Of a stretch of DNA of 64,000 bases, positions 3,484 through 27,098 are shown in pieces. A program made the translations under genes and the position numbers. The notes beneath the pieces were generated by a model. It worked only from the letters and a program-made list of their open reading frames with translations, was not told the DNA's origin and ran no database searches. This stretch comes from Candidatus Latescibacterota bacterium (GTDB lineage: Bacteria > Latescibacterota > UBA2968 > UBA8231). Each line of letters starts with the position of its first letter. The stretch's first letter is position 1. The stretch lies in contig OZ253462.1 of assembly GCA_965261395.1 (NCBI GenBank), positions 3,776,001 through 3,840,000 on the forward strand, given 5' to 3'.

Positions 3484-4702
3484 CTGAGGCTCTTCTACTA
3501 TAATATATATGACAAGAATATAGCTCTAGGCGGTGTAAGTCATTGTTCGGTATGGCGTACAATGCTAAGGGGATGCACCCCGTCAACTGGTTGCCGCCGA
3601 GGTACAGGTCTTGCAGGTTTTTGAGTTGTCCGATTGTTTCGGGAATCGTCCCTGTCATCGTCCCTGTCAACTGATTGTTCACGAGGCTCAGGTCTTGCAG
3701 GTTGTTGAGTTGTCCGATTGTTTCGGGGATTGATCCCGTCAACTGGTTGCCGCCGAGGTACAGGTCTTGCAGGTTGTTGAGTTGTCCGATTGTTTCGGGG
3801 ATTGATCCCGTCAACTGGTTGCTGTTGAGCCATAGGTCTTGCAGGTTGTTGAGTTGTCCCAACGCTTCGGGTATCGATCCCGTCAACTCGTTGTAAGCGA
3901 GGTCTAGGCTGATGACACGCCCTTCGTCGTCAGTGGTAACGCCGTGCCATTGATCGAGCGGGTACGTGTTGATGAGCCAGTTCGTATTGTACTTCCAGTT
4001 GCCTCCGCCGGTAGCCTCATAGAACGCGACTAACACAGCCCGATCTTGTTCAACGGCGTCCGCGACCACAGTCTGTTCAGTGGCTAAACCGATTCCATCC
4101 GGCAACGTCGGGTCAAGCGGATTCGCAATATAGGTCATAATAAGAAGGACATCCGCTAGGTTTATCAGGCCGTCCTCGTTGACGTCACCTAGGGCGATAT
4201 TGCCTTGGTTGGGCGCTACGAAGGAGAAGCGTTCTAGGGTATAAAGCAGCACGAGCAGCGCGTCCGCTATATCGACTTGATTATCGTTGTTGACATCGCC
4301 CAATATGCCCACCGCTTGTGCGGCCTTGCCCGCAGCATACGACCGAGGAGCCTCATCGATGGTTATGGCCCCTCCCGTAAAAGCAAACGCCGTGTCCACA
4401 TGGGTTGTCATATAGGGACCGGAAACGCCCAACCAGTAGCTCGGTCGCTGGGGCACAGAGACCTCGAAGCCTCCTTGGTCATCCACCGGCGCACGGGCCA
4501 GCACTACTAGACGCTCCGCGTCGATGATAACCACCTCGGCCTCTGACACCGCAGAACTCTCACCCGTCACAATCTGGCCTCGTTGGACCTGTTCCGGTCC
4601 AGACGGATAGAGCGGGTTGGAAGATTGGTTTTCGAACCGGAGGTTGCTGTCGCCACAAGCGATCATCGACAAGGCGGATATCAGAACAAATAGGCTACGC
4701 AT
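3458..4702 (-). CDS. Lipoprotein with dockerin-like and plant-type LRR domains
   Basis: Lipobox MIAC; duplicated GDVNND..DIADAL / GDVNEDG..NLADV; LRR consensus NQLTGSIPETIGQLNNLQDLxL. Confidence 0.85.
   Translation of the reverse strand: MRSLFVLISALSMIACGDSNLRFENQSSNPLYPSGPEQVQRGQIVTGESSAVSEAEVVIIDAERLVVLARAPVDDQGGFEVSVPQRPSYWLGVSGPYMTTHVDTAFAFTGGAITIDEAPRSYAAGKAAQAVGILGDVNNDNQVDIADALLVLLYTLERFSFVAPNQGNIALGDVNEDGLINLADVLLIMTYIANPLDPTLPDGIGLATEQTVVADAVEQDRAVLVAFYEATGGGNWKYNTNWLINTYPLDQWHGVTTDDEGRVISLDLAYNELTGSIPEALGQLNNLQDLWLNSNQLTGSIPETIGQLNNLQDLYLGGNQLTGSIPETIGQLNNLQDLSLVNNQLTGTMTGTIPETIGQLKNLQDLYLGGNQLTGCIPLALYAIPNNDLHRLELYSCHIYYSRRASGGRVGRFI
3570..3900 (-). repeat. 72-bp coding tandem repeats (24-aa LRR units), including a 12-bp duplication (TGTM-TGTI)
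   Basis: Near-identical ggtcttgcaggttgttgagttgtccgattgtttcgggg units at 72-bp spacing. Confidence 0.9.
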
Positions 4703-4779
4703 GGCATGTTTTTCCGGTTTAGAGTGAAGGGTCTTCGTCTTTTCAGTATATCGTTTAGCGTCTTGATCTGGAGGTGTAT

Positions 4780-4998
4780 TCATGGCGAAGTAATAGGCGT
4801 GAGACTGAACACACGTGAACATTTTGCAGCGGTCTTAATGTCTCCTCGACGAAGGGCTTCCCGCACCTCGTCGAGACGATATGCGTCTTCAAGAGAAAGG
4901 TACGGGGACCATCCTTCAGGTTCTTCTAGTAGCTCTACGTCAACTTCCGCAACGTAGATTCCTTCGTGAACGAGCTTCGTCCGTTCTTTCTTATTCAC
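4780..4998 (-). CDS. Small hypothetical protein (72 aa)
   Basis: Compact, protein-like ORF (KLVHEGIYVAEVDVEL..WSPYLSLEDAYRLD) filling the gap between two genes. Confidence 0.65.
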   Translation of the reverse strand: MNKKERTKLVHEGIYVAEVDVELLEEPEGWSPYLSLEDAYRLDEVREALRRGDIKTAAKCSRVFSLTPITSP

Positions 4999-5016
4999 TG
5001 ACGTTACGCAGTGCCC

Positions 5017-5892
5017 CTACTCGGCTTCGTCTAACAGGTGCCTAAAGGCTTCGAGGCTCGGCACCTGTACAGCCGCCCGAAACAACTGCTTGAGGCGCTG
5101 CACATCGTCGATGGCCCCAATGCGGTCGGCCAACGGATCCGACGCGGCCAGCCCAAAGCGAATCTCCAGCACATCGAGCAAATCTTCAACGGCGCGTTCT
5201 CGGCCGCCTCGCTCGATGCCCTTTTCCGTGAAATACTGCACGATCGACGATTCGTACATGGTCTCCTCCGACATGATGGTCATGATGGTCTCTGATTTAT
5301 ACACCAATCCGCTCAAAATCGCAAGATCGGCCAGATAATTCGCCTTGAGAGTCTCGTCCATCGGCACCTGCTGCGCCCGGTTCACACACTGGCGCAACCA
5401 CGCTTCCGCATCCACCCCCACCGGCTGCTGCATTAACGGCGCAAAAGGGATCAAGCCCGAATGCCCCTCGTCGAGGATGCGTTGGCCGTCTAGTTCACTC
5501 AGCCGAATCACCTGGTATTGCACCAACACGCGGAAGCTGTGCCGTTCTTGGATATAGTGCCCTGGATCGGTTCGGCCCGCCTCCGGGCGCAGATAGATGA
5601 CGCTAGAATAGATCGGCAGGCCGTGCTGCTCAATGCCGCGCCCGATATAGCCAGCCATGCGGCGCGGCATCGGCGGGGTGCTGTCGGTGGTTTGAAATTC
5701 GTGATGGACTAACGCCTCCTCGCTGCCGATGCGCACGCGGATGAGGCTATCAGTGCGATGGGCTTCGACCGTGGGTTGCTCCGTGTCGATCACGTCGAGT
5801 ACCTCAAGGTCGTCTTGCTGGAGGGCGAAGCGGGCGAAGTCGTGGGGGTAGGTGTGGATGAGGTGCTTGGAAATCGTGTCGAATTCGGCCAT
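5017..5892 (-). CDS. Rpn/YhgA-like PD-(D/E)XK nuclease family protein
   Basis: FDTISKHL..RTDSL..HHEFQT..MPRRMAGY..VIYL, then MYESSI..KGIERG..LEIRFG C-terminal region. Confidence 0.8.
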   Translation of the reverse strand: MAEFDTISKHLIHTYPHDFARFALQQDDLEVLDVIDTEQPTVEAHRTDSLIRVRIGSEEALVHHEFQTTDSTPPMPRRMAGYIGRGIEQHGLPIYSSVIYLRPEAGRTDPGHYIQERHSFRVLVQYQVIRLSELDGQRILDEGHSGLIPFAPLMQQPVGVDAEAWLRQCVNRAQQVPMDETLKANYLADLAILSGLVYKSETIMTIMSEETMYESSIVQYFTEKGIERGGRERAVEDLLDVLEIRFGLAASDPLADRIGAIDDVQRLKQLFRAAVQVPSLEAFRHLLDEAE

Positions 5893-5903
5893 GGCGATCC
5901 ATC

Positions 5904-6012
5904 GGGAATTAGGAACCGAGAATTGAGAATCAGGAATTAGAGCTTGCCAAGCCGTCCGAACTGGGGGGCGGTTGGGTCTATTCATGATTCCTAATTCGTA
6001 GTTCCTAATTGC
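5904..6012. repeat. Two inverted arrays of 7-nt (RGGAATT-like) repeats upstream of the Rpn gene
   Basis: gggaatt aggaacc gagaatt gagaatc aggaatt (5904-5938); reverse-complement array ttcatgattcctaattcgtagttcctaatt (5981-6010). Confidence 0.8.
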
Positions 6013-6150
6013 AATATCCATGCCAAGGCCAAGTGCAGCGGGACGGACGGGGCCGCGCAGGGTGAGACTGTATCGGGCACAACCCATAAATGAGACCTTT
6101 AGGGGATAAGCCGACCGCGTAACATCAGTGGTATAATACGCTTAGAGTGT

Positions 6151-6963
6151 TCACTCCACAGGTATTTCGTCGTTGAAAACTTGGGTGCGTTTCATCAGGC
6201 GGCGCTGGTCTGGGGGGAAGGCGAGGCGGCGGTGCATGGTCGGGCGGTTGTCGAAGAGGACGAGGTCGCCGACTTGCCACTCATGGGTCCAGACGAAGCG
6301 CGGCTGTTCGAGATGGGCGTACAGTTCGCCGAGCAGGGCGTCGCTGTCTTGGCGGCTGAGGCCGACGACGTATTTGGTCAGGTGCGGCCCTACGTAGAGC
6401 GAGCGGCGACCTGTTTCGGGGTGCGTGCGGACGATGGGGTGGGCGATGCGCTCGGGAGGGTTTTGCGCTTCGACGTAGTGGCGATGCACGGCGCGCATTC
6501 CCTTGAGGCGGCTTTTCCAAGCGTCGTCGAGCGCTTTGTAGGCAGCCGTGCAATTGCACTACTGGGTCTGGCCGCCCTGGGAGGGAATCTCCACCGCATA
6601 GAGCACCGACAGGGTGCCAGGACGCAGCAGGTAGGAAAGATCCGAGTGGAAGGGGATCAGTTCGGCGCCTAGTTCGCCGATTGGCTCGCCGTTTTCTTTG
6701 ACATTGGAGATGAGGAAAATCTCCTTGACTCGCCGTGGGCGCTGCTTGCGCACGTGGGGTACGGGTTTGCCAAAGTGCGCGGTGAAACGCACTAGGTCCT
6801 CGTCGCTGAGTTGCTGCTGGCGAAAGAAGACCACGCCGTGATCGAGCAGTGCCTGGCGCACCTGCACAACTTGGTCGGGCGCGAGCGGTGCGGACAGGTC
6901 GCAACCTTTGATCTCCGCGCCGAGCGCGCCGCCGGTGGGCACGATTTGTATCTCAGAGTCCAT
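6151..6963 (-). pseudogene. TauD/TfdA Fe(II)/2-oxoglutarate dioxygenase interrupted by an in-frame TAG
   Basis: HSD, HPIVRTHPETGR, DNRPTMH motifs; both ORFs share a frame and are separated only by TAG at 6559-6561. Confidence 0.85.
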
Positions 6964-7067
6964 TTGAAAATCCCGCGTACGCCCCAAACAACGTCATCCC
7001 GCATCTGCGTTTAGCTGCGGATACTTTGCCCCCATGCGACCGTCGCCGGGAGTTTTTAGACGGCTTC

Positions 7068-7829
7068 TCAGACATCGCAGACTTCAAAGGCGTGAGCTAG
7101 CGAGTCAACGGGATCGCCCTTGGGCCGGTACTCGTGGCCGACGTAGCCCGCGTAGGAAGTGGCGGCGATGGCCTGCATGATCGGCGGGTAGTAAATCTCC
7201 TGCTGGTCGTCGAGATCCTGGCGACCAGGGTTGCCGGCAGTGTGGAAGTGGCCGATGCAGTCGATGTGGTCGGTGATGTTGCGGATGAGATCGCCTTCCA
7301 TGATCTGCATGTGGTAAATGTCGTAGAGCAGCTTGAAGCGGGGCGAGCCGACGGCCCGACAGAGGGCCGCGCCCCAAGCGGTGCGGTCGCACTGGTAGTC
7401 GGGATGGTTGACGCGCGAGTTGAGCAATTCCATGCAGAGGGTAATGCCTTTTTCCTCGGCGGCCCCGGTGACGCGGCGCAGGCCAGCGACGCAGTTGGCG
7501 AGCCCCTCTTCTGAGGAGCGCCCCTCGCAGTTGCCGGAAAAGCAAATCAGCGAGGGAATGCCGTGCTCAACGGCGAGGTCGATGTTGGCGAGGAGCTCGT
7601 CTTCGATGCGGTCGTGGTTTTCGGGCTTGTTGAGGCCGTCGGGCAGGGAGGCGTGGCCGGAGACAATGGCGATGGCGAGGCCGTGGTCTTGGATGAGCGG
7701 CCAGTGTTCCTGAGCGGCCATTTCTACGGATTGGTAGCCGATGCGGGCGGCGGCAGCGCCCAATTCTTGCGGACTGAGGCCGCTGCCGGTGAAGGGATTG
7801 AAGCAGACGGATTGCTTGATGGCAGGCAT
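7068..7829 (-). CDS. Hydroxypyruvate isomerase / AP-endonuclease-2 TIM barrel protein
   Basis: LLYDIYHMQIMEGD, HFHTAGNPGR, GYVGHEY. Confidence 0.9.
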   Translation of the reverse strand: MPAIKQSVCFNPFTGSGLSPQELGAAAARIGYQSVEMAAQEHWPLIQDHGLAIAIVSGHASLPDGLNKPENHDRIEDELLANIDLAVEHGIPSLICFSGNCEGRSSEEGLANCVAGLRRVTGAAEEKGITLCMELLNSRVNHPDYQCDRTAWGAALCRAVGSPRFKLLYDIYHMQIMEGDLIRNITDHIDCIGHFHTAGNPGRQDLDDQQEIYYPPIMQAIAATSYAGYVGHEYRPKGDPVDSLAHAFEVCDV

Positions 7830-15247: not shown

Positions 15248-15952
15248 ATGAAGCACGCCAAGCAAAAGTCCGAACTCGGCCAATACCTGTATTCTATACT
15301 GACCGTCGTGGGTTTGTTTCTGGTTATTCGCACCAGTGTGGTGCAGGCCTTTTACATCCCTTCCAGTTCAATGGAAGATACGCTCTTGGTGGGCGATTAT
15401 CTGCTGGCCAACAAGTTTGTCTACGGCGTTCCGGTTGATGTGCCCCTGACGAGCATTTCCCTCTTCCGCCTGCCCACGCTCAGGGAACCGCAGCCGGGCG
15501 ACATCGTCATTTTCCGCTCTCTGCAGGACGAGGGGCGCGACTTGATCAAGCGCTGCGTCGCCGTCGGGGGACAGCAAGTGGAGATTGTCAACAAGGTGCT
15601 CTACGTCGATGGCGAGCCGGTGCAAGACCCGCCGTTGTCCAAGCACACCGACCGCACGTACTATCCGCGGGAGCTCAATCCCCGCGATAATTTCGGTCCA
15701 TATATCGTGCCCGAAGATCATTTCTTTATGATGGGCGACAACCGCGACAACAGCCACGACAGCCGTTACTTTCGCGCTGTGCCCAAGCGGTTGATCAAGG
15801 GCAAGGCCATGATCATCTATTGGTCGTGGGAGCCCGACACCCGCGGTCCGTACTACAGTGACTTGAGTTCGCTGCCCGCGGTGGTGGCCAGCTTTATTTG
15901 GCGCCTGCCTAGCCGAGTGCGCTACGGGCGACTCGGCGACGTTATTTACTAG
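15248..15952 (+). CDS. lepB: Signal peptidase I
   Basis: IPSSSMEDTL, LIKR, MGDNRDNSHDSR. Confidence 0.96.
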   Translation: MKHAKQKSELGQYLYSILTVVGLFLVIRTSVVQAFYIPSSSMEDTLLVGDYLLANKFVYGVPVDVPLTSISLFRLPTLREPQPGDIVIFRSLQDEGRDLIKRCVAVGGQQVEIVNKVLYVDGEPVQDPPLSKHTDRTYYPRELNPRDNFGPYIVPEDHFFMMGDNRDNSHDSRYFRAVPKRLIKGKAMIIYWSWEPDTRGPYYSDLSSLPAVVASFIWRLPSRVRYGRLGDVIY

Positions 15953-16014: not shown

Positions 16015-17709
16015 ATGAACCGCAGAGAATCACACGAATACGACCAGGACCAAGAGCCGGAAGAGCAGGCCGCCGAGCCATTGCGCTTGGTCGATCAGCT
16101 ACTCGCGCTAGCTCCAGACCGCGATCCGGCTCGGCCCCTGCTGTACCGCCTCCGGCGTCAGCTCATGGAGCGGGAGATTTCCTTTCAGGAGGCGCGTCGT
16201 GCCCTCGTGGAGATGGAAGCTGCCCTAGAGAAGGTGACGGCACCGGCCAACCGCGTCGGCATCTTTCTCGGCATGCCGAGCGAGGGGATTGCCACGGTCT
16301 TCGTCGGCAGCGCCGAGTACTATGCCAATATCGACCCGCGCGTCGATGCAGCTCAGCTCAAGGTCGGCTGTCGGGTGCTGGTAAACGAAGCCTACGCGGT
16401 CGTCGGCAATTTGGGGCACAGCCCCTCTGGGCCGGTGGCCAAGGTCGGCGATCTGCTCCCAGAGGGTCGGTTGCGGATCACCCAAGCGCACGGCACCCAA
16501 GAGGTGGTCGTGGAGCGCGCCGCGGAATTGGCTGACGAGGATTTGCAAATCGGCGACGAGGTGCGGATGGACCCGGCCTACAAGGTCGCGCTGGAAGTGT
16601 TGCAGTCCGCCGAGAGCAAGGAGTACTTCATCGAAGACGTCCTCCCGACTCCCTGGGAGAGCATCGGCGGCCAAGCCGAAGCAATCGAGGCCATCCGCGA
16701 CACCATTGAACTGCCCGCGTTGCACCCCCAGCTCTTCGAGCGCTTCGAGTACTCGACGCCCAAGGGCTTTCTGCTCTACGGCCCTCCGGGCTGCGGCAAG
16801 ACCCTCATCGGCAGGGCCACGGCGTACAACTTGGTGCAGCACATGCGCGAGGTCGAGGGATTGGAGCTGGAAGAGTACTTCATGCACATCAAGGGGCCGG
16901 AGATCCTCAACATGTGGCTCGGTGAGACCGAGCGCATGGTGCGCGAGGTCTTTGCCCAAGCGCGCCAAAAGCGCAAGGAAGGCTATTTGCCCTTTGTCTT
17001 TATCGACGAAGCCGAGTCGATCTTGGGCACTCGGCGCTCGATGCGCAGCCACAACATCTCCAACACGGTCGTGCCGATGTTTTGCACTGAGATGGACGGC
17101 ATTGAGTCGCTGCACGATGTGGTGCTGATTTTGGCCTCCAACCGCCACGATCTGATTGATCCGGCCGTGCTCCGACCCGGCCGCATCGACCGCAAGATCA
17201 AGGTCGCGCGCCCCAACTACGAGGCGGCCGGCGACATTTTGGGGATTTACCTCAAGCCCGAGCTACCGCTCGACTGCGCCGAGGTGGAGCAGCACGGCGG
17301 CGCAGCGGCGGCGCGCGAGGCCCTGATACAGGAGGGTCTAGACGAGTTGTTTTCCAAAGGCGAAGAGGCCCGCTTCTTGGAGGTGTCGTTGCGCAGTGGC
17401 CGCCAAGAAGTGCTCTATCGCGGCGACCTGATTTCCGGGGCCATCATCGCCTCGGTCGTATCGCGGGCCAAGGAAATGGCGATCAAGCGCGCCATAGCCG
17501 AGGGCGACCCCGAAGGCGGGATCCGCGCCGAGGATCTGCGGCAGGCGACGCGGGCTGAATACCGCGAGAACGAGGTGTTCCCACCCTCGGACAGCGTCGA
17601 GGACTGGCTCAAGCTGCTCGACTACGAGCCGGAGAACGTGGTGAGGGTGATACCCGTTAGACCTCAGCCGGAAAAGGCAGCGGAAAAGCGCGTCGGTCAG
17701 GTGATCTGA
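16015..17709 (+). CDS. arc: Proteasome-associated AAA ATPase (ARC/Mpa)
   Basis: N-terminal coiled coil, OB region, GPPGCGKT, IKGPEILN, FIDEAES, RPGRIDRKI; first gene of the proteasome operon. Confidence 0.95.
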   Translation: MNRRESHEYDQDQEPEEQAAEPLRLVDQLLALAPDRDPARPLLYRLRRQLMEREISFQEARRALVEMEAALEKVTAPANRVGIFLGMPSEGIATVFVGSAEYYANIDPRVDAAQLKVGCRVLVNEAYAVVGNLGHSPSGPVAKVGDLLPEGRLRITQAHGTQEVVVERAAELADEDLQIGDEVRMDPAYKVALEVLQSAESKEYFIEDVLPTPWESIGGQAEAIEAIRDTIELPALHPQLFERFEYSTPKGFLLYGPPGCGKTLIGRATAYNLVQHMREVEGLELEEYFMHIKGPEILNMWLGETERMVREVFAQARQKRKEGYLPFVFIDEAESILGTRRSMRSHNISNTVVPMFCTEMDGIESLHDVVLILASNRHDLIDPAVLRPGRIDRKIKVARPNYEAAGDILGIYLKPELPLDCAEVEQHGGAAAAREALIQEGLDELFSKGEEARFLEVSLRSGRQEVLYRGDLISGAIIASVVSRAKEMAIKRAIAEGDPEGGIRAEDLRQATRAEYRENEVFPPSDSVEDWLKLLDYEPENVVRVIPVRPQPEKAAEKRVGQVI

Positions 17710-17717
17710 CTCAGCTC

Positions 17718-19262
17718 ATGCAGCGGCTCTGCGGGCTAGAAACCGAATACGGCATCCAAGTTGGTGAGGGCGAGTCCATAGACGTGGTGGTAGAATCCAT
17801 GGAGTTGATCCGCTGCTATGTGCGCCAGGATTTTGTCGCCCTCTGGAATTACGCGCTCGAAAACCCGCGGCTCGACATGCGCGGCTTTGAGGTCGCCGAG
17901 CTTCGCAACGACAAGGACGAGACCGTCCACTTGCAGAAGGATCGCCAGCGCCCGATCCAGCTAGCGGACCTCAAAAGCGACTTGATCGTCCACAACGGTG
18001 CCCGCCTCTACAACGACCACACCCACCCGGAATTTTCTACTCCCGAATGCTATAGCCTCCGCGACTTAGTAGCTGTCGATCGCGCCGGGGAGCGGATTCT
18101 TCTCCAATGCGCGCGCCAGCGCACCGAGGATCGCGGCCGGGGCGTGGTGCGCTTGTACAAAAACAACACCGACTTCGAGGGGCACAGCTATGGCTGCCAC
18201 GAGAACTTCCTGCTCAGCCGCGACATGCCCTTCCAGCAGGTGATCAACGGGCTGCTGCCCTTTGTGGTGACGCGGCAAATTTTTGCCGGGGCCGGCAAGG
18301 TCGGCATTGAACAGGACACCCGGGCGCGGGCCGCCATCTATCAGCTAACCCAGCGCGCGGACTTTTTCGAAGTCATCGCCAGCGTCGATACCATGCACCG
18401 CCGCCCGCTGGTCAATACCCGCGACGAGCCGCACGCCGATCCAGCGCTCTACCGCCGCCTGCATCTGATCATCGGTGACGCCAACATGTGCGAATACGCC
18501 ACCGCGCTCAAGGTCGGCACGGCTTCCTTGGTGCTGGACCTGCTAGAGGCCGGCGCGTTGCCCGCGTTTGCCTTGGCCGATCCCATTGGCGCGCTCAAAG
18601 CCATTTCCCGCGACGAGTCCCGGCAGTGGCCGGTGGCCTTGTCCGGAGGAGATTCGAGCTCGGCGCTGGAGATCCAGACGGCCATTATGGCGGCGGCGGC
18701 GCGGATTTTTCAAGGCCGCGACGCGGAGACCGATTGGGTGCTCGCGGCTTGGCGCGACGTGTTGGAATCCCTCGCGCGCGACCCGCAAGAGCTGATTGGA
18801 CGCCTCGATTGGGTGACCAAAAAGTGGCTTTTGGATGCGTTTGCCGAGTCCGAGGGGCTCGATTGGGAACGACCGGAGGACCGCGCTTGGCTGCAAAGCC
18901 AAGATCTCGAATACCACAACATCGACCCGGCTGAGGGGCTATACTCGACGCTCGAAGCCGCCGGCCAAGTAGAGCGCATTGTCTCCGAGGAGGCGGTGGG
19001 CCGGGCGTTGGTCGATCCGCCCGGGGACACGCGGGCCTATTTCCGCGGCAAGATGTTGCAGAAATTTGCCGCCGCGGTGCGCTCGCTCAACTGGGACAGC
19101 ATTGAGCTGGAACTCGACGGCCGCTGCGAGGTCATTGACCTCAAGGCTTGTGTCAGCCGGGAGACAGCGGCTTATTATAATCAAGCCCTAGACGCGGCTT
19201 TGAGCATCGAGGATTTGCTCGCCAGATTGGGTAGAAACCCGAAACCGGAGGTATCACCATGA
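17718..19262 (+). CDS. dop: Dop-like deamidase/deconjugase (PafA2 family)
   Basis: GLETEYG, NGARLYNDHTHPEFSTPEC (Dop-type), SYGCHEN, NTRDEPHAD. Confidence 0.9.
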   Translation: MQRLCGLETEYGIQVGEGESIDVVVESMELIRCYVRQDFVALWNYALENPRLDMRGFEVAELRNDKDETVHLQKDRQRPIQLADLKSDLIVHNGARLYNDHTHPEFSTPECYSLRDLVAVDRAGERILLQCARQRTEDRGRGVVRLYKNNTDFEGHSYGCHENFLLSRDMPFQQVINGLLPFVVTRQIFAGAGKVGIEQDTRARAAIYQLTQRADFFEVIASVDTMHRRPLVNTRDEPHADPALYRRLHLIIGDANMCEYATALKVGTASLVLDLLEAGALPAFALADPIGALKAISRDESRQWPVALSGGDSSSALEIQTAIMAAAARIFQGRDAETDWVLAAWRDVLESLARDPQELIGRLDWVTKKWLLDAFAESEGLDWERPEDRAWLQSQDLEYHNIDPAEGLYSTLEAAGQVERIVSEEAVGRALVDPPGDTRAYFRGKMLQKFAAAVRSLNWDSIELELDGRCEVIDLKACVSRETAAYYNQALDAALSIEDLLARLGRNPKPEVSP

Positions 19263-19447
19263 GCGATTTTATCCACTACCGGGAGCGCGTCCCTCGGCCG
19301 ACCAAGCCGATCGACGATGGCGAGGAGCCGGATACCGGTCCGCGCCGGCCGAGAGTCGAGCGCCCCAGCACGGACGACATTCTCAAGCGGATGCGCCGAG
19401 TAGATCCGAATCAGGCCCGTCGCTACCGCCAGCGCACCGGACAGTAG
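19259..19447 (+). CDS. ubact: UBact prokaryotic ubiquitin-like modifier (62 aa)
   Basis: Disordered-looking small protein ending LKRMRRVDPNQARRYRQRTGQ, between dop and prcB; GGAGG RBS. Confidence 0.9.
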   Translation: MSDFIHYRERVPRPTKPIDDGEEPDTGPRRPRVERPSTDDILKRMRRVDPNQARRYRQRTGQ

Positions 19448-19453
19448 CCGCCG

Positions 19454-20212
19454 ATGGAAAGCTGCGATTTCCTTGAGTTGCTCAAGGAGCGGGGGCTTTT
19501 GCCCGCCGCCCCGCCCTTTGCTCCAGAAGCGTCTTTGCAGCCAGTCGAGGGCACCACGATTATAGCGGTGCGCTGCGCCGACGGGGTGGTGGTAGCCGGC
19601 GACCGCCGCGCCACCATGGGCAACTCGGTGGTGTACGACCGCGCCGACAAAGTGCTGATCATCGACGATGAAGCGGTCATGGCCATTGCCGGCTCGCCGG
19701 CGGTGGCGTGGGACATTGCGCGCATGCTGGAAATGTCGGTGCAGTACTATCGCCGCAGCCAGCTCCAAGGGCTGAGCTTGGACGGCAAGGTGCGGACTTT
19801 GTCGCGGCTGTTGCGCCAGAACCTGCCGCTGGCCATGCAGGGGATTGGCGCGGTGGTGCCGATCTTTGCGGCCTTTGACCACGCGGCCGCGGAGGGCAAA
19901 ATTTTCTTTTACGATCTCTTGGGGGCTGAGTTCGAGTGTGTGGATTTCTGCGCCACCGGGTCGGGCGCGCACATTGTGCGCGGCGCGCTGTACTACCAAA
20001 ACCGCTGGGGGCCACAGCCGCTGCGGGAGATGGCCGGGGAGCAGGCTGTCGAACTGTTGCTCAAGATGCTGGAGACGGCCGCTGAATACGACACGGCGAC
20101 CGGCGGCTTCCGCGAGTCCGCGCACATCTTTCCCCAGGTCGTACAGGTGACGGCCGCGGGCTTGAGTGCCGTGCCCGAAGCAGAGCTGGCCGCGCTCTAT
20201 CAAAGGGCTTGA
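19454..20212 (+). CDS. prcB: 20S proteasome beta subunit
   Basis: Propeptide then G|TT, AGDRRATMGN, ATGSG. Confidence 0.93.
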   Translation: MESCDFLELLKERGLLPAAPPFAPEASLQPVEGTTIIAVRCADGVVVAGDRRATMGNSVVYDRADKVLIIDDEAVMAIAGSPAVAWDIARMLEMSVQYYRRSQLQGLSLDGKVRTLSRLLRQNLPLAMQGIGAVVPIFAAFDHAAAEGKIFFYDLLGAEFECVDFCATGSGAHIVRGALYYQNRWGPQPLREMAGEQAVELLLKMLETAAEYDTATGGFRESAHIFPQVVQVTAAGLSAVPEAELAALYQRA

Positions 20213-20217
20213 GGCGC

Positions 20218-20979
20218 ATGTTAGAAGAACCTTATCGCTGGGTCGAGGCCATCAACAACCGCCGCGAATACTTGGAAGACCAACTCGCGAGCGGCAGTCC
20301 GGTGGTGGGTACGACGTATGCCGACGGGGTGCTGCTGCTGACAGCTACTCCAGGCCCGCGCAAGCTCTTTGAGGTGTACGACGAGATTGCCTTCGCGGCC
20401 GTGGGGCACCCGTCCGACATTGAGAAGCTGCGCAAAGCCGTCATCGACATCGCCCATCTCGAAGGATTTAACCTGTCGGCCAACGACGTGACCTTGCAGC
20501 GGTTGGTCAGCTTTGGCATTGGCCCGCTGATGAAGGCGGCTTTCGACGAGCTATTTCGCTCGCCCTTCATCGCCCGCGTGATGATGGCCGAGCTAGACCC
20601 GGACGGCGGCGGAGACTCCTTTTTCACCATTGACGCCGATGGGTCCTTTGCCCGGAGCGGCGGGGTGGCGGCCCTCAGCGGCAGCGCGGAGAGCGCGCAG
20701 GCCATGACGGCACAACTGCAAGCGGCCGACCCGGAGCTGCCTCTCAGCCAAGCCTTGGGCGCGGCGTTGGAGGTATGGGGATTGGGCCGGTTGACCCTCG
20801 ACGCCCGCGATGGCGAGGTGCCCAACGCGGAGGCGGTTTGCGATTTTCTCAAGGGCGGTTTGCAAGGGCTGACCATCGAGGCCGCAGTACTCGACCGCGA
20901 GCGCGTCGCCAAGTCGAAGTTCCGCATGCTCACCGCGGAACAACTAGCCGAGCCACTTGCTTCCTACTTCGAGGTCTAG
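20218..20979 (+). CDS. prcA: 20S proteasome alpha subunit
   Basis: GSPVV, KLFEVYDEIAFAAVG, EAAVLDR; follows prcB. Confidence 0.9.
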   Translation: MLEEPYRWVEAINNRREYLEDQLASGSPVVGTTYADGVLLLTATPGPRKLFEVYDEIAFAAVGHPSDIEKLRKAVIDIAHLEGFNLSANDVTLQRLVSFGIGPLMKAAFDELFRSPFIARVMMAELDPDGGGDSFFTIDADGSFARSGGVAALSGSAESAQAMTAQLQAADPELPLSQALGAALEVWGLGRLTLDARDGEVPNAEAVCDFLKGGLQGLTIEAAVLDRERVAKSKFRMLTAEQLAEPLASYFEV

Positions 20980-20980
20980 T

Positions 20981-22408
20981 ATGGAAGATCGCATCTACGG
21001 GATAGAGACCGAGTACGGCTGTCTGCCGCCGGCTTCAGATCCCTTTTTGAGTCCCGATTTCGTTTCGATAAAGGTCAAGGACTGCGTGTTCTACCGCGAG
21101 GGCTTGGGCATTGTCGATATGCACTATCGGGGCCGAGACGAGCCGCCCGGCAACGGCGGCTTTCTCTTCAACGGTGGGCGCGTGTACATCGACATGGGCC
21201 ACGTCGAGTACGCCACCCCGGAATGCACCGGCCTTTTTGATTTGGTGGCCGCCGACCGGGCTGGCGAGCGGTTGGTGCAGCGCGCGCTAGACCAGCTTGG
21301 CTTGGCCGATAGCGCGGCCTTTTTCAAGAACAATATCGACCACTACACAGGGGCTACTTTTGGCTGTCACGAAAACTACCTCGTGCGGCGGGAGGTGCCG
21401 TTTTCGCAAGTATTATTGCCGACCATGTTGCCCTTTTTCGTCACCCGCCAGATATTCGCCGGCGCTGGCCGAGTCGGTTGTCACACGGATATTTTCGAGT
21501 ACGGCAATGCCGAGGACGAAGGCGTTGAATTCCAACTCTCGCAGCGGGCCGATCACATCGTCACCGAGATCTACCAGTGGATCCAGTTCAGTCGCGCGAT
21601 CATTAACACGCGCGACGAGCCGCTGGCCGATTGGGGGCTGTACCGCCGCTTGCACCTGCTGGTAGGCGACTCGAATATGATGGAGTACGCCACGGCCCTG
21701 AAAGTGGGCACCACGGCCTTGGTGTTGCAGCTTTTGGAAGAGCAAGAGCGCGTGATCTGCGACGACATCAAGCTCCTCGATCCGGTGCAGGCCATCCGCG
21801 ACATTTCGCGCGACATGACCTATCGCTGGGAAGTGCAGCTAGAGGACGGCCGCTACACTACTGCGACGGAGATACAGCGCACGTATCTCGACTTGGCCGA
21901 GCGCTACCTGCGCGGTCGGGATGAAGAGGGTGACTGGGTGTTGGATGAGTGGCGCTTTGTCATCGACGCCTTAGAACACGATCCCGGGTGCTTGGTCGAT
22001 CGCGTCGATTGGGTGGCCAAGAAGTGGCTGTTGGAGTACTTCATGCGGGAAGAGGGGCTGGACTGGCAGGATACTTGGATCCAAAGTTTGGATTTGGAAT
22101 ACCACAATCTCAACACGGCGCGAAGCCTCTATTTCGATCTGTACGAGCGCGGGTTGGTCAAGCGAATCGTCAGCGACGAGCAGATCAATCAGGCCATCAC
22201 GCATCCCCCGGCCAATACCCGCGCTCTCGCCCGCTCCCGAGTGATGAGGGCGCTGACCGACCAGAAGACGCGTTACCAAATTGATTGGGACTCCATTTGC
22301 GTGGGCGACGATAAGTTCCTCAGCCTCGACGACCCCTTTCTCATCTATGATCGCGAAGCCGAAGTCTTCATCCGCGAATGCCGGCAGATGCCGGTCGATA
22401 AGTTTTGA
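20981..22408 (+). CDS. pafA: PafA-like modifier--protein ligase
   Basis: RIYGIETEYG, NGGRVYIDMGHVEYATPEC, FGCHENY, NTRDEP, RRLHL. Confidence 0.9.
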   Translation: MEDRIYGIETEYGCLPPASDPFLSPDFVSIKVKDCVFYREGLGIVDMHYRGRDEPPGNGGFLFNGGRVYIDMGHVEYATPECTGLFDLVAADRAGERLVQRALDQLGLADSAAFFKNNIDHYTGATFGCHENYLVRREVPFSQVLLPTMLPFFVTRQIFAGAGRVGCHTDIFEYGNAEDEGVEFQLSQRADHIVTEIYQWIQFSRAIINTRDEPLADWGLYRRLHLLVGDSNMMEYATALKVGTTALVLQLLEEQERVICDDIKLLDPVQAIRDISRDMTYRWEVQLEDGRYTTATEIQRTYLDLAERYLRGRDEEGDWVLDEWRFVIDALEHDPGCLVDRVDWVAKKWLLEYFMREEGLDWQDTWIQSLDLEYHNLNTARSLYFDLYERGLVKRIVSDEQINQAITHPPANTRALARSRVMRALTDQKTRYQIDWDSICVGDDKFLSLDDPFLIYDREAEVFIRECRQMPVDKF

Positions 22409-22446
22409 TGTAGGCCGCTAGGCCATGCAAGTCTCAGGAGATTGTC

Positions 22447-22710
22447 ATGCGTAGCTATAGAGCACTCCTCCACGGGAACCGTCTCGAGTGGCTGGAAGAA
22501 GCACCAGAACCTCATAAAGACGTGCCGTTGCAGGTCCATGTAATGGTGCTAGAGCAAGCGAGTTTCGCCGATACGGACACAAGGGGACGCGCTATGGCGG
22601 CGATACTTGAAAAGCTAGCGGAAAGCGGTGCGTTTTCCGCGATTGCTGACCCTGCAAAGTGGCAACGCGCACTCCGTCGAGACCGCGTATTGCCGGAGCG
22701 CGAAGAGTAG
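22447..22710 (+). CDS. Putative antitoxin of the downstream PIN toxin
   Basis: 87-aa ORF with AGGAG RBS; its stop overlaps the vapC start. Confidence 0.7.
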   Translation: MRSYRALLHGNRLEWLEEAPEPHKDVPLQVHVMVLEQASFADTDTRGRAMAAILEKLAESGAFSAIADPAKWQRALRRDRVLPEREE

Positions 22711-23093
22711 TGCTCATTGACAGCAACATTCTTATCTATGCATCCCAATCTACACATGCTCATCTGAGACAGTTGATTGTTAAGTATGCGCCGGCCATTT
22801 CAGCCGTCAGTTACGTAGAAGTCCTCGGGTATCATCAACTCGATGACGAGGAGCGGCAATACTTGGAGGCATTTTTTCGCTTGGCTCAGGTCCTACCTCT
22901 TTCGCAAGACGTCCTCGACCGAGCAGTAACCCTCCGACAGCAGAAAAAAATGTCCCTCGGTGATGCCCTCGTAGCCGGGACTGCGCTAATACACGAACTG
23001 ACGTTGGTAACTCGTAATGTGGAGGATTTTCAGTGGATTCAGGAATTGTCATTATTGAACCCTTTTGAATCTGGAACTCTACAAGACCACTAA
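22710..23093 (+). CDS. vapC: VapC PIN-domain toxin
   Basis: LIDSNILIY..E..DALVAGTAL..LVTRNVEDF. Confidence 0.9.
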   Translation: MLIDSNILIYASQSTHAHLRQLIVKYAPAISAVSYVEVLGYHQLDDEERQYLEAFFRLAQVLPLSQDVLDRAVTLRQQKKMSLGDALVAGTALIHELTLVTRNVEDFQWIQELSLLNPFESGTLQDH

Positions 23094-23323
23094 GTCCACT
23101 CCCGATAGGGAATTCTCAAAATGAACAGATGGACTAAGTTAAGCATCGATTATGCAAACCAGAGGTCGTACTTGGATGATTTATTTCAAGTCTATCCAAC
23201 GATTCCAGAAGGAATAAGAGATATAGACAAAAAATCTTGGGCCAAAATTGAGCAAGCATTTTATGATGAAGATAATTATACTCTAGTCTGCGAGTTATTA
23301 GAACTTGACTTATTTCCAATAAA

Positions 23324-24499
23324 GGCTTTGGTGCATGGATCGGTATTTTTGGGTTTCTCGGTTGAATAAAGACAGGCTCCTCAGTAGATTGGGCATGACT
23401 TTTTTGCGAAAAGACTCTATGCCTTCTCTTCCAAGGAACCTGTCCTGTCCAACGTATCGTCTGCTCCGTCTTCGGTCAAGCCCCGTCGCCGTCGCTCGAA
23501 GGTTGTGTATCGGGTGCGTAATTGGCCTGATTATGATGCGGGGCTTACCCAGCGCGGTAGCCTGACGGTGTGGTTTTCCCCCCAAGCGGTCGAAGCGTGG
23601 TATTATCAAGGGCCGCGCCAACGGGGGGCGCAATATACCTTTTCGGACGTAGCCATCCACACGGCGTTGACGTTGCGGCTTATGTATCACTTGCCGCTAC
23701 GCCAAACCGAGGGGTTTGTCGCTTCCATTGTAGCCTTGATGGGCTTGGCTATACGGGTGCCGGATCATACGACCCTCTCGCGGCGTCAGGCTGACTTGAC
23801 AGTAGCGTTGCCTACCCAGCCCACGGATCAACCCCGGCATTGGGTCGTTGATTCGACGGGGTTGAAGGGGTATGGCGAAGGCGAGTGGAAGGTGCGTCAG
23901 CACGGCTGGGGCAAGCGGCGCACCTGGCGCAAATTGCACCTTGGGGTCGACGAAGCCACCGGCGAGATCGTCGCCCAGACGTTGACGGCCAATCGCCCAG
24001 ATGATGCCGGGCAGGTCGAGCCGTTGCTGGAGCAAGTCGCGGCCCCCATCGCGGCGGTGGGCGGGGATGGAGCCTATGATAAACGCAAGGTGTTTGAGGC
24101 GTTGGCTGCGCCGGACCGAGGGCCGCCGATCCGGCCGATCATTCCGCCGCGCAAAGACGCCAAAATCCAGCAACATGGCAACTGCAACGCGGAGCCGTTG
24201 CCCCGCGATGAGACGATCCGAACCATCCGTAGCCGGGGCCGTCGAACCTGGAAAAAAACCAGTGGCTATCATCGCCGATCCCTCGTCGAAACCCAGATCG
24301 GCCGCTACAAACAGAGCCTCGGCGACACCTTGCACGCCCGAACCCTATCCCACCAACAAACCGAAACACGAGTGGGATGTGCCATACTCAACCGGCTATT
24401 GCATTTGGCTAAGCCCGAGTCCTATCCGATAACCAAGGAAGTCTAAAACACACCAGACAAGGGGCAACACGGCCCCGACAGTTTTCATGCACCAAAGCC
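23324..24499 (+). mobile_element. Complete IS5-family (IS903 group) element, 1176 bp
   Basis: Perfect 14-bp IRs GGCTTTGGTGCATG / CATGCACCAAAGCC; 9-bp TSD TCCAATAAA at 23315-23323 and 24500-24508. Confidence 0.95.
23505..24446 (+). CDS. IS903-like DDE transposase
   Basis: YRVRNW..RGSLT, DSTGLK.GEGEW, WRKLH, DGAYD, GYHRRSLVET. Confidence 0.95.
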   Translation: MYRVRNWPDYDAGLTQRGSLTVWFSPQAVEAWYYQGPRQRGAQYTFSDVAIHTALTLRLMYHLPLRQTEGFVASIVALMGLAIRVPDHTTLSRRQADLTVALPTQPTDQPRHWVVDSTGLKGYGEGEWKVRQHGWGKRRTWRKLHLGVDEATGEIVAQTLTANRPDDAGQVEPLLEQVAAPIAAVGGDGAYDKRKVFEALAAPDRGPPIRPIIPPRKDAKIQQHGNCNAEPLPRDETIRTIRSRGRRTWKKTSGYHRRSLVETQIGRYKQSLGDTLHARTLSHQQTETRVGCAILNRLLHLAKPESYPITKEV

Positions 24500-25106
24500 T
24501 CCAATAAAAGATAGCTATATTGCCTATCTGAGAAGAGATAGAAGTGCATTAGGCAGAAATCCTAGAACGATAAATAGAATATGCGGTAGGTTATATGAAA
24601 TGGGCATTGACAAAATTTTTGAAAGATGCACTGAACCGAAAGAAACTAATAGACAAATTGGCCCTATGTTTCGAGATTGGTTAAGAAAAAAATCATTGGG
24701 TGTTAGTCCTGTCGATTTAGCAACTTTTGTATCAAGTACTGGAGATGCAGTTTTAGATGGAAGTGATGAAGAAAATATGAATTTTGCTAAAAAGTATTTA
24801 GGCTATAAACACAATAAAGGATTAGATATTGTGGCGAGATTTAACAATAAGTATGTGATTGGGGAAGCAAAATTTCTTACAGATTTTGGCGGACATCAAA
24901 ATGCCCAATTTAACGATGCTATTAGTACTGTGGAAACAGAGGGCGTAAATGCTGTAAAGGTTGCCATATTGGATGGGGTTCTTTATATAAAAAGAAAAAA
25001 TAAAATGCATAAATTAATAACCGAAGATTATAAAGGATATAACATTATGAGTGCTCTTGTATTGCGAGACTTTTTGTACCAAATATAATTGAGGAGGTAT
25101 ATACCT

Positions 25107-25652
25107 GTGAATTTACTTATCCAAGGTCAACTGTTCTATTTCCCGATGAACTTCCTCAAGAAGGCTACCGGACTCATTGACAAATATCTAGAGAACCTTG
25201 ATGAGAGAAAAGAGAATTGTCCTGATCCCGATAGCTTTGGGTTCTACGACGATGGCGAGCATATCACTGGTCTTGGTTTCGTTGTATGCCAGTACTACAT
25301 CACAGCCATTTATTCTTTTTATAAAGAAAACAAATCGGCAGCACTAAAGCGCGGTCCAAAACATTGTACAGGCCTACCTTTTGCAGAACTGATAAACGCA
25401 TGCGCCAATTATTGGAAGCATCATGAAGAGTGGCGAGGAGTGCCGAAGGAACAATTGAGGCCTGACTCTGCCAAGACCATTAAGGCCATGAAGAGTTTAG
25501 GGATTAAAGCGGCAGAGGGTTACTATCCGCTTAATAACGCCTTCTGTAAATTGCTCGGTTCCCCTCCTTATAGGTTCAACGCTCTCCTACCGCTTCTGAA
25601 AGAATGGAGAGAAGCAGTGCGTCAAGCGGCTAAAGAGGCTAAAGGGCCTTGA
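25107..25652 (+). CDS. Hypothetical protein between the REase and MTase genes
   Basis: GAGGAGG RBS + GTG; 181-aa ORF containing ANYWKHH. Confidence 0.7.
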   Translation: MNLLIQGQLFYFPMNFLKKATGLIDKYLENLDERKENCPDPDSFGFYDDGEHITGLGFVVCQYYITAIYSFYKENKSAALKRGPKHCTGLPFAELINACANYWKHHEEWRGVPKEQLRPDSAKTIKAMKSLGIKAAEGYYPLNNAFCKLLGSPPYRFNALLPLLKEWREAVRQAAKEAKGP

Positions 25653-25719
25653 ACCATGACGTCGAACTGGACCAACTATACGATGTGGACGGATGCCAAT
25701 CTAGACGAGGTATATACTG

Positions 25720-26760
25720 ATGAACCTACTCATTGAAGGCGACAACACCAAAGGCTTGAACTACCTTCTACGAGAAAAAAATATCAAAGAAAAAATAGAC
25801 TTGGTGTACATCGATCCGCCCTTTGCCACTGGTATTAATTTCACCATTACCGAAGATCGCGCTGCGACGATTAGCAATTCAAAACGTGGATCCGTCGCTT
25901 ATTCTGATCGATTAGTAGGTTCTGAGTTTGTTGATTTTTTGCGCGAAAGATTGCTCTTGCTAAGGGAACTTTTATCTACAAGTGGTTCAATTTACTTGCA
26001 TATCGACTATAAGATCGGCCATTACATCAAAGTTATGATGGACGAAGTGTTCGGCATAGAGAATTTTCGCAACGACATAACGAGAATAAAGTGCAATCCC
26101 AAGAATTTTAAGAGAACGGGCTATGGCAACGTAAAAGACTTGATTCTCTTTTACAGTAAAACAGCGCATCCTATATGGAATGAACCAAGAGAGAAATACT
26201 CGGCAGAAGATATAGGGAGGCTATTCCCTAAGACGGACAAACGAGGAAGGCGCTATACTACAGTGCCGATTCACGCGCCGGGAGAAACTCAACGCGGAAA
26301 ATCCAATCAGCCATTTAGAGGCATGATGCCGCCAAAGGGCCGGCATTGGAGAACTGATGTCGAGACGCTAGAAAGATGGGATAAAGAGGGTCTGATAGAA
26401 TGGTCGGCAACGGGTAACCCAAGAAAAGTAGTATTTGCAGATGAGAGAGAGGGTAAGAGGGTACAAGATATTTGGGAGTATAAAGACCCCCAATATCCAG
26501 TGTATCCAACGGAGAAAAACTCCGAACTCTTGGACTTGATTATTCGCACTTCTTCCAATCCGGGAAGTATTGTGCTGGACTGTTTCTGCGGATCAGGGAC
26601 GACGTTAAAATCCGCTCAGCGGCTCAACAGAAATTGGATCGGTATTGACCAATCGGAACACGCGATTAAAGCAACGGTCGAAAAACTTGAGGACATCGAA
26701 GACGATTTTTTTACGGGCAAGCTAGAATACGAGTTTTTGAAACTCGCTGTGGCGGATTGA
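25720..26760 (+). CDS. Site-specific amino (N6/N4) DNA methyltransferase, beta class
   Basis: YIDPPF before YPTEK and DCFCGSGTT. Confidence 0.95.
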   Translation: MNLLIEGDNTKGLNYLLREKNIKEKIDLVYIDPPFATGINFTITEDRAATISNSKRGSVAYSDRLVGSEFVDFLRERLLLLRELLSTSGSIYLHIDYKIGHYIKVMMDEVFGIENFRNDITRIKCNPKNFKRTGYGNVKDLILFYSKTAHPIWNEPREKYSAEDIGRLFPKTDKRGRRYTTVPIHAPGETQRGKSNQPFRGMMPPKGRHWRTDVETLERWDKEGLIEWSATGNPRKVVFADEREGKRVQDIWEYKDPQYPVYPTEKNSELLDLIIRTSSNPGSIVLDCFCGSGTTLKSAQRLNRNWIGIDQSEHAIKATVEKLEDIEDDFFTGKLEYEFLKLAVAD

Positions 26761-26788
26761 AAGCAGCACTTTTGAAAGTGAGCATTCT

Positions 26789-27028
26789 ATGCTAACGGCC
26801 TATATCCAATCGGCAATGAGACGCGCGACATACGAGATCCTCGACGATCAAACGTTTTATGGAGAAATCATTGGATTTCAAGGCGTGTATGCAAATACTG
26901 ATACTTTAGAACAGTGCCACGAAGAATTGCAATCCGTGCTTGAAGGCTGGATCATCCTCGGATTGAGAATGGACCATCTGATTCCACAAGTAGATGGGTT
27001 GCGCTTGGATAGCGTACTTACTATCTAA
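26789..27028 (+). CDS. HicB-family antitoxin-like protein (no hicA adjacent)
   Basis: YGEI.GFQGVYA..TLEQC.EEL..VLEGWI pattern. Confidence 0.75.
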   Translation: MLTAYIQSAMRRATYEILDDQTFYGEIIGFQGVYANTDTLEQCHEELQSVLEGWIILGLRMDHLIPQVDGLRLDSVLTI

Positions 27029-27098
27029 CGGATAAAACACCGTTGCGATGCCTAGGGCTAATTTTTTGGAATTTCACTATGGGACCAACCCTAAAGGA

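Follow-up and report, generated by a model that had tools for sequence, protein, structure and literature searches.

Does a bacterium of the phylum Latescibacterota, which belongs to the FCB group, carry a functional UBact-proteasome system, and how does such a system relate to the Pup-proteasome system of actinobacteria? This question is raised by a six-gene locus in a 64,000-nucleotide (nt) stretch of DNA, referred to here as the window, which covers positions 3,776,001-3,840,000 of contig OZ253462.1 (assembly GCA_965261395.1, Candidatus Latescibacterota bacterium). Six open reading frames (ORFs) occupy the plus strand from window position 16015 to 22408, with zero internal stops or frameshifts across 6.4 kb. 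They encode an ARC/Mpa-like AAA ATPase (arc), a Dop-like enzyme of the Pup-ligase family (P1), the protein tag UBact (ubact), the beta and alpha subunits of a 20S proteasome (prcB and prcA), and a PafA-like second member of the Pup-ligase family (P2). By analogy with the actinobacterial system, we consider it likely that these genes form a functional UBact-proteasome operon, which would correspond outside actinobacteria to the Pup-proteasome system.

Organization of the UBact-proteasome operon

All six genes are recognized by Pfam and NCBIfam family models (Table 1). The original prediction, made from the DNA letters alone, had named an intact operon arc-dop-ubact-prcB-prcA-pafA; gene identities, order and intactness are all borne out by the reading of the ORFs and by the Pfam and NCBIfam matches. 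It had also proposed a hidden Markov model (HMM) search with UBact and Pup_ligase models, which places the tag above both UBact cut-offs and matches P1 with 525 bits and P2 with 476 bits. The name pafA stands as a functional label for P2, but not as a statement of proven orthology to actinobacterial PafA.

Known UBact loci (PF20513/NF033388) have the same six genes in the same order, and we found no difference of substance between them and the window. The locus also agrees with the actinobacterial Pup-proteasome system in gene order, enzyme families and catalytic residues, one difference being the position of pafA immediately after prcA. In 2017, Lehmann, Udasin, Livneh and Ciechanover (BBRC 483:946) reportedly named UBact and described the six-gene locus in Gram-negative phyla. 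Because the system has already been described, in that report and in the family models PF20513 and NF033388, the operon is an ordinary one: it is real, intact and typical of a known system. An account that predates the name is that of Iyer, Burroughs and Aravind (2008), whose passages on these loci describe tags that are 50-90 residues long and end in G[EQ] in nitrospirae, verrucomicrobia, planctomycetes and deltaproteobacteria, each next to one member of a pair of PafA paralogues and for the most part accompanied by proteasome genes; these passages treat the tags as Pup orthologues and make no mention of Latescibacterota (PMC2588565). Further phyla are listed as carriers in the corresponding part of Hecht et al. 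2020 (PMC7947786). To this known system the present analysis makes modest additions, namely an inverted charge of tag and enzymes, an ATPase tail without the usual tyrosine, and an open origin of P2.

Within the operon, neighbouring genes overlap or lie 2-9 nt apart, which suggests co-translation. The ATG of ubact overlaps the stop codon of P1 as ATGA and has a Shine-Dalgarno motif, GGAGG, 8 nt on its 5' side. The TTG start of prcA at 20209 overlaps the prcB stop codon, and an ATG at 20218 offers an alternative start. P2 probably starts at the ATG at 20981, two bases past the prcA stop, rather than at the TTG at 20957, because the family match begins there and near-identical proteins are publicly called at 475 amino acids.

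The source genome is a single closed contig of 6.55 Mb and is 95% complete. It holds exactly two Pup_ligase genes, P1 and P2 of the operon, and its only Proteasome-family genes are prcB and prcA, so that it has no HslV. A closed chromosome with two Pup-ligase paralogues and no HslV makes the locus a clean template for work on the system.

For comparison, we collected related loci as the best 80 of 237 P2 relatives in species-representative genomes. The records are mostly labelled Candidatus Latescibacterota, and some Gemmatimonadota, Planctomycetota or Handelsmanbacteria. The six-gene order is kept in 71 of the 80, and the other nine are cut by contig ends.

The UBact tag

UBact exceeds the curated cut-offs of both PF20513 and NF033388. 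Its ORF ends in ...NQARRYRQRTGQ, in agreement with the originally predicted terminus RRYRQRTGQ, which lacks a Gly-Gly pair. Across 20 relatives, residues R44, M45, V48, D49, P50, Q52 and R55-G61 are invariant. In 76 of the 80 related loci, a UBact homologue is flanked by the Dop-like gene and prcB; contig ends cut the remaining four. In their last 27 codons, these 76 genes comprise 71 distinct DNA sequences that encode 30 peptides. Codon positions 1, 2 and 3 are variable at 18, 8 and 26 of the 27 sites, and the codon differences from the window gene amount to 716 synonymous and 231 non-synonymous changes. Taken together, the conserved position, the synonymous-rich codon pattern, the Shine-Dalgarno motif and the ATGA overlap indicate that ubact is a real coding gene under strong purifying selection and no chance ORF.

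A wider view of the family was obtained with a profile of 20 UBact sequences, searched against 1.84 billion proteins, which gave 180 clusters at 50% identity. Among the best 150 of the 180 cluster representatives, 126 end in G[QE] (Q 81, E 45), and the terminal tetrapeptides are RTGQ in 66, RTGE in 29, RSGE in 14 and RSGQ in 13, which makes 122 with R[TS]G[QE]. The other 24 resemble gene-call artefacts. As far as sequence comparison can tell, the UBact of the window is a typical family member, and RRYRQRTGQ is among the common endings.

The terminal residue of the tag alternates between Gln (49) and Glu (27) in the 76 related loci, a one-base difference (CAG/CAA versus GAG/GAA). The two termini interchange among close relatives, and a tree of P2, encoded in the same operon, implies at least six switches. 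Full-length P1 accompanies 46 Gln-ended and 26 Glu-ended tags; in the other four loci it lies at a contig end or is interrupted. Since P1 is kept beside Glu-ended tags, it would have to do more than deamidate, presumably by removing the tag. The same dimorphism is found in actinobacterial Pup, where 12 of 20 comparator genes end in GGQ and 8 in GGE, and the Dop-like enzyme is kept either way.

UBact differs from Pup in ending with R-T-G-Q rather than G-G-Q, in being basic rather than acidic, and in escaping detection by the Pup model. The C-terminal halves of the two tags nonetheless align collinearly along D-x-[IL]-L ... R-x-[YF]-x-Q-x-x-G.

P1 is a Dop-like enzyme

The two actinobacterial enzymes of the Pup-ligase family are distinguished by the Dop-loop, a segment of about 40 conserved residues that passages in two sources describe as absent from PafA (PMC12288473; PMC7947786), and by discriminating positions which, according to the part of Hecht et al. 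2020 around their Table 1, have been tested by mutagenesis (PMC7947786). By HMM score, Dop-loop motif, diagnostic residues and predicted fold, P1 is clearly Dop-like. On the NCBIfam models it reaches 445.9 bits with Dop (TIGR03688) and 359.9 bits with PafA (TIGR03686), 86 bits apart. Its best solved relative is Dop (4b0r), with 403 bits and an end-to-end alignment over residues 1-504, whereas PafA scores 250 bits. The Dop-loop of P1 aligns with that of solved Dop, and W43, Y45, E48, D53, R55, G56 and F57 within it are invariant in 20 relatives, as are the catalytic residues E8, E10, D100, H161, R213, R235 and H249. At most positions of Table 1 of Hecht et al. 2020, P1 shows the Dop state (S27, L82, A83, I90, D100-H101, S107, P109, F216, E218 and V219); the exceptions are N99, T102, S222, H227 and N458.

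An AlphaFold model of P1 has a predicted local distance difference test score (pLDDT) of 84.5 and a predicted template modelling score (pTM) of 0.89. In a Foldseek comparison, the model is closer to Dop (7oyh_A, template modelling (TM) score 0.83, root-mean-square deviation (rmsd) 2.7) than to PafA (4bjr_A, TM score 0.77, rmsd 5.2). Its alpha-loop is not helical, as in Dop, with residues 217-222 forming a strand and 223-228 a coil.

By analogy with Dop, P1 is predicted to deamidate UBact-Gln and to strip UBact from proteins. In mycobacteria, as described in part of one study, Dop deamidates the terminal Gln first and PafA ligates afterwards (PMC3511204). The original prediction had extended this order to the window; deamidation of the terminal Gln by P1 ahead of ligation is a natural and reasonable inference because P1 combines the Dop-loop and the catalytic residues with a predicted fold like that of Dop, and because the Gln/Glu dimorphism mirrors that of Pup. 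It follows as a prediction that Gln-ended tags need P1 before P2 can use them, while the Glu-ended tags of close relatives do not.

P2 is the probable UBact ligase

Sequence comparison and structure prediction make P2 the probable UBact ligase. Its likeness to a ligase lies in the missing Dop-loop and in several residues of the PafA type. No Dop-loop motif is present, with P2 residue 57 aligning with PafA residue 50 and Dop residue 81, and P2 has its own loop of about 28 residues where Dop has the Dop-loop. PafA-type states are present at F61, G73, A78, H192, S204 and D437. P2 and actinobacterial PafA both have an N-terminal LSPD motif and a C-terminal DPF motif, and the PafA alignment spans residues 1 to 464. 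The catalytic residues E9, E11, D71, H130, R189, R211 and H225 are invariant in 20 relatives. P2 lacks Ser67 of PafA, and the PafA alpha-loop positions W190, E191, G192, S194, S195, A196 and R199 are unmatched. Also absent is the alpha-loop Thr-Thr pair, which is conserved in both actinobacterial enzymes and matters for PafA activity. An AlphaFold model of P2, computed from a 20-row alignment, has a mean pLDDT of 49 and is unusable for judging the alpha-loop conformation. The relatives found by homologue search are at least 79% identical among the 120 listed, with no outgroups among them, and the name that NCBI gives to close relatives is 'proteasome accessory factor PafA2 family protein'.

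We further predicted the complex of P2 with UBact residues 27-62. It reaches an ipSAE score of 0.84, against 0.01 for the best of three controls, a value that shows likeness and is no proof of binding, since it may reflect memory of the solved PafA-Pup structure (4BJR). In calibration, 116 of 157 solved complexes reached such a mark, as did 2 of 215 mismatched pairs. Contacts agree to at least 93% among the three runs, with a partner pLDDT of at least 69. In the predicted complex, UBact residues 44-62 lie in a groove along P2 residues 350-390 and contact E11 and D71-H74.

A separate peculiarity of P2 is residue 215, where the NTRDEP-H-AD motif, universal otherwise, has Leu (EPLAD). All 20 relatives compared keep this Leu, and the corresponding residue is His in P1, Dop and PafA.

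The ATPase and the 20S core

The ATPase consists of an N-terminal helical region, two OB domains matched by PF17758 (59.9 bits) and PF16450 (51.7 bits), and one AAA module (PF00004, 106 bits). Walker A (GPPGCGKT) is found at residue 256, Walker B (FIDE) at 329 and the pore loop (WLG) at 301. Both 20S subunits score above the Pfam cut-off of PF00227. PrcB has a propeptide of 33 residues and a G|TT cleavage site, so that Thr34 corresponds to mature Thr1, with D50 as Asp17 and K66 as Lys33. The cleavage site and both catalytic partners also occur in 75 of 77 related loci.

A tail of the type GQYL, with its tyrosine, docks the ATPase onto the 20S core. The ATPase of the window ends in GQVI rather than GQYL. 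Across 71 related loci, the last two residues are VI in 54, IV in 10, VV in 3 and others in 4. A penultimate Tyr is found in none of these 71, while TGQYL ends the protein in 11 of 11 actinobacterial comparators. If the system works as proposed, its ATPase is predicted to engage the 20S core although the usual penultimate tyrosine is missing.

Charge inversion of tag and enzymes

The last 26 residues of UBact carry a mean net charge of +4.6 (63 sequences), and those of the wider family +4.7 (126 sequences), in contrast to -5.9 for Pup (19 sequences). Both enzymes are far more acidic than their actinobacterial equivalents. The whole-protein net charge is -28.6 for P2 (isoelectric point (pI) 4.85) versus +6.1 for actinobacterial PafA (pI 8.85), and -27.6 for P1 versus -15.8 for Dop. 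At the alignment columns of the predicted interface, the net charge is -8.2 for P2, -1.2 for PafA, -8.5 for P1 and -0.5 for Dop. Sequence and model together indicate that the charge of the tag/enzyme pair is inverted relative to the actinobacterial system, with a basic tag and more acidic enzyme grooves. Accordingly, acidic residues that P1 and P2 have in common in the groove, for example E373 of P2, are predicted to be needed for tag binding.

Proposed mechanism

We postulate that UBact is synthesized with a C-terminal Gln, which the Dop-like P1 would convert to Glu by deamidation, and that P2 would then act as the ligase. The ARC/Mpa-like ATPase, presumably as a hexamer, would bind the tag, unfold the tagged protein and thread it into the PrcA/PrcB 20S core, where Thr1 of mature PrcB would cut the substrate. 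P1 may also remove the tag again.

Phylogeny of the two enzymes

The relationship of P1 and P2 to actinobacterial Dop and PafA was approached with a tree of 56 sequences, comprising 15 P1, 15 P2, 13 actinobacterial Dop and 13 actinobacterial PafA. The P1 and P2 sequences come from the window and 14 of the 80 related loci, the actinobacterial ones from 13 of 25 loci that hold both genes. These comparators, one Nonomuraea record and metagenome contigs 81-91% identical to its PafA, represent a narrow slice of Actinobacteria. The four enzyme groups are each recovered at 100%, with branches of 0.65 to 1.55 changes per site between them. In the best tree, P1 stands next to Dop and P2 next to PafA (ultrafast bootstrap (UFBoot) 85, Shimodaira-Hasegawa-like approximate likelihood ratio test (SH-aLRT) 65). 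All three possible pairings survive an approximately unbiased (AU) test (p 0.60, 0.49 and 0.29); it was run on 26 of the 56 rows with fast constrained searches under LG+F+G4 and is weaker than the mixture model of the tree. Signature columns are likewise split: at 60% consensus, 8 support orthology, 10 the grouping of P1 with P2 and of Dop with PafA, and 4 the third pattern, and at 90% consensus the numbers are 2, 5 and 1. The weak support of the split, the divided signature columns and an AU test that rejects nothing leave orthology of P2 and PafA open.

Conservation across the phylum

Of 168 genomes of the phylum, 131 have Pup_ligase genes, nearly always as a pair. Broken down by family, the genes are present in 72/75, 3/3, 22/22, 31/31 and 2/2 genomes (130/133 in five families) and in 0/34 genomes of nine others. 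This pattern points to long vertical retention under selection.

Alternative explanations

Several observations weigh against the reading of the region as a functional UBact-proteasome operon with P2 as its ligase. The five actinobacterial NCBIfam equivalog models all match, and all of the matches fall below the curated cut-offs (Table 1). The Pup model PF05639 does not match UBact at an E-value of 0.01 or better, and an hhalign comparison of UBact with Pup is not significant (probability 0.31, E-value 0.2). With no penultimate Tyr in the ATPase, docking to the 20S core is not assured. P2 ties on the NCBIfam models for PafA (TIGR03686) and Dop (TIGR03688) at 367.6 bits, matches solved Dop (292 bits) better than solved PafA (247 bits), and in profile comparison is closest to its own neighbour P1 (824), followed by actinobacterial Dop (609) and PafA (592). 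It lacks the one-residue Val insertion that PafA has after the catalytic Asp (D-M-G-H versus D-V-G-S-H), and its alpha-loop HIVTEIYQWIQFSRA, invariant in 20 relatives, has I-Q...S-R where PafA has T-T...S-R. The score of the predicted complex is subject to the memory effect described above. Finally, a full-text literature search on 'UBact' returned, as judged by title and abstract, no experimental study of any UBact system, so that every step of the mechanism is drawn by analogy; this fits the statement of the original prediction that UBact loci were described bioinformatically, with substrates and physiology largely uncharacterized. A search on the proteasome of Latescibacter, judged in the same manner, returned no study on that topic.

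The features of P2 could mean that it is not a ligase but a second hydrolase or a regulatory paralogue, with ligation performed by P1 or absent altogether. Its preference for solved Dop over solved PafA, the tie between the two NCBIfam models and an alpha-loop that fits neither enzyme class would all agree with this. We nevertheless regard it as very unlikely, as P2 has neither the Dop-loop nor the Dop His after the catalytic Asp, a position with the top conservation score in Table 1 of Hecht et al. 2020 as seen in that part of the study (PMC7947786), and shows the PafA state at five diagnostic positions. In addition, a tag ending in Gly-Gln or Gly-Glu would be useless without a ligase, the genome has only two members of the family, and the other one, P1, retains almost all Dop-specific states. 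If P2 is a ligase, the system may work as described and the question becomes one of descent: a Dop-like gene could have duplicated separately within the UBact lineage to give the ligase/hydrolase pair, in which case ligase activity would have evolved twice and P2 would be no orthologue of PafA. The profile score of P2 with P1, well above those with PafA and Dop, argues for such a duplication, as do the signature columns favouring P1+P2 at both consensus levels, the survival of the P1+P2 tree in the AU test (3.2 log-likelihood units worse, p-AU 0.49), and the missing insertion and Thr-Thr pair. The best tree, with P1 beside Dop and P2 beside PafA, argues against it, and so do the LSPD and DPF motifs and the states F61, A78, H192, S204 and D437 that P2 shares with PafA at experimentally defined discriminating positions. 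Moreover, the states W366, S369 and E373 that P1 and P2 have in common sit in the predicted tag groove, and co-adaptation of the two enzymes to a single basic tag would offer a simple alternative explanation for them. In the relevant passages of Hecht et al. 2020, Dop and PafA, including those of Nitrospirae, form two well-supported clusters (PMC7947786). On balance, a separate duplication appears unlikely to us. A broader proposal, in which UBact is a charge-inverted parallel system and not a drifted copy of Pup, P2 arose by separate duplication so that the switch from hydrolase to ligase happened twice through different alpha-loop solutions, and the unfoldase docks by its Tyr-less tail, is a speculative one that we would hold decidedly unlikely in its entirety. 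The origin of P2 bears on the change from hydrolase to ligase, which was the subject of experiments on Dop and PafA by Hecht et al. 2020 (PMC7947786).

Descent also underlies the possibility that horizontal transfer brought in the operon as a copy of the actinobacterial Pup-proteasome locus, with UBact as a fast-evolving Pup and no separate system at all. Gene order and enzyme families are the same as in actinobacteria, and the C-terminal halves of UBact and Pup are collinear. A passage of Hecht et al. 2020 proposes that the system arose in Actinobacteria and later passed to other phyla (PMC7947786), and the passages of Iyer et al. 2008 cited above call the non-actinobacterial tags with their G[EQ] terminus Pup orthologues (PMC2588565). 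We find this explanation doubtful, given that PF05639 and the profile comparison fail to connect UBact with Pup, that the four enzyme groups are far apart on the tree and the UBact-type enzymes are not nested in the narrow actinobacterial sample, and that the tag and both enzymes are charge-inverted. The near-universal presence in five families would also make any transfer an old one. That the locus is instead a silent or decaying relic seems scarcely credible. Promoter-like sites (5, with 2.2 +/- 1.8 expected) and terminator-like sites (7, with 7.1 +/- 2.7 expected) are at chance level and yield no usable operon boundaries, as a relic might show; against this stand the uninterrupted 6.4 kb, the invariant catalytic residues of P1, P2 and PrcB, the strong purifying selection on ubact as the smallest gene, and the retention of the system in 131 of 168 genomes. 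The functional UBact-proteasome operon remains the reading that we prefer.

Host envelope and genomic neighbourhood

The original prediction had spoken of a 'Gram-negative-type' genome. Eight matches to Omp85/BamA-family genes (best 170 bits) support this for the outer-membrane protein machinery, but the lipopolysaccharide side is unsupported, as LpxC and LpxB were searched for in the 95%-complete single-contig genome and neither was found. Eight Omp85-family genes yet no LpxC or LpxB may indicate an outer membrane without classical lipid A, or enzymes too divergent to detect.

Table 1 Features of the operon and its neighbourhood in the window, with family matches and actinobacterial equivalog scores.
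Feature	Window positions	Strand	Length (amino acids)	Family matches	Actinobacterial NCBIfam equivalog model
Signal peptidase I gene	15248-15952	+		PF10502 159.6 bits	
arc, ARC/Mpa-like AAA ATPase	16015-17709	+	564	Pfam AAA and both proteasomal-ATPase OB domains	ARC TIGR03689, 448.2 bits (cut-off 504.75)
P1, Dop-like Pup-ligase-family enzyme	17718-19262	+	514	PF03136 525 bits	Dop TIGR03688, 445.9 bits (cut-off 492.3)
ubact, tag	19259-19447	+	62	PF20513 73.1 bits (cut-off 27.8); NF033388 74.6 bits (cut-off 35)	
prcB, 20S beta subunit	19454-20212	+	252	PF00227 102 bits	Beta TIGR03690, 169.2 bits (cut-off 191.9)
prcA, 20S alpha subunit	20209-20979	+	256	PF00227 29.2 bits (cut-off 22.4)	Alpha TIGR03691, 83.4 bits (cut-off 139.05)
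P2, PafA-like Pup-ligase-family enzyme	ORF 20957-22408; probable gene 20981-22408	+	475 from ATG 20981	PF03136 476 bits	PafA TIGR03686, 367.6 bits (cut-off 551.3)
Endonuclease, N-terminal piece	23121-23369			Model positions 1-67	
DDE transposase gene, between endonuclease pieces	23505-24446				
Endonuclease, C-terminal piece	24600-25088			Model positions 98-260	
N6/N4 DNA methylase gene, intact	25720-26760				

A signal peptidase I gene lies 62 nt on the 5' side of arc on the same strand, and it is found directly upstream in 54 of 68 related loci with enough sequence. This makes it a conserved neighbour rather than an established member of the system.

Two of the related loci depart from the compact arrangement. 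In L006 (about 4348-6148), a stretch of about 1.8 kb, perhaps an insertion, interrupts the Dop-like gene. L076 has an ATPase gene broken in two and a gap of 1.7 kb between prcB and prcA (about 764-2067 and 5420-7103), and insertions may again be responsible.

Directly 3' of the operon, window positions 22409-27090 form a variable island with a G+C content of 0.45-0.53, compared with about 0.62 around it. At 22447-23093 it contains an ORF of 87 amino acids and a PIN-domain gene that together resemble a toxin-antitoxin pair. These are followed by a Tsp45I-type restriction endonuclease gene (23121-25088) that is split by an insertion sequence (IS), and by the methylase gene (Table 1). The related loci L007, L008, L009, L011 and L013 have conserved downstream DNA directly after pafA, and L003 has the PIN pair and the methylase without the endonuclease/IS part.

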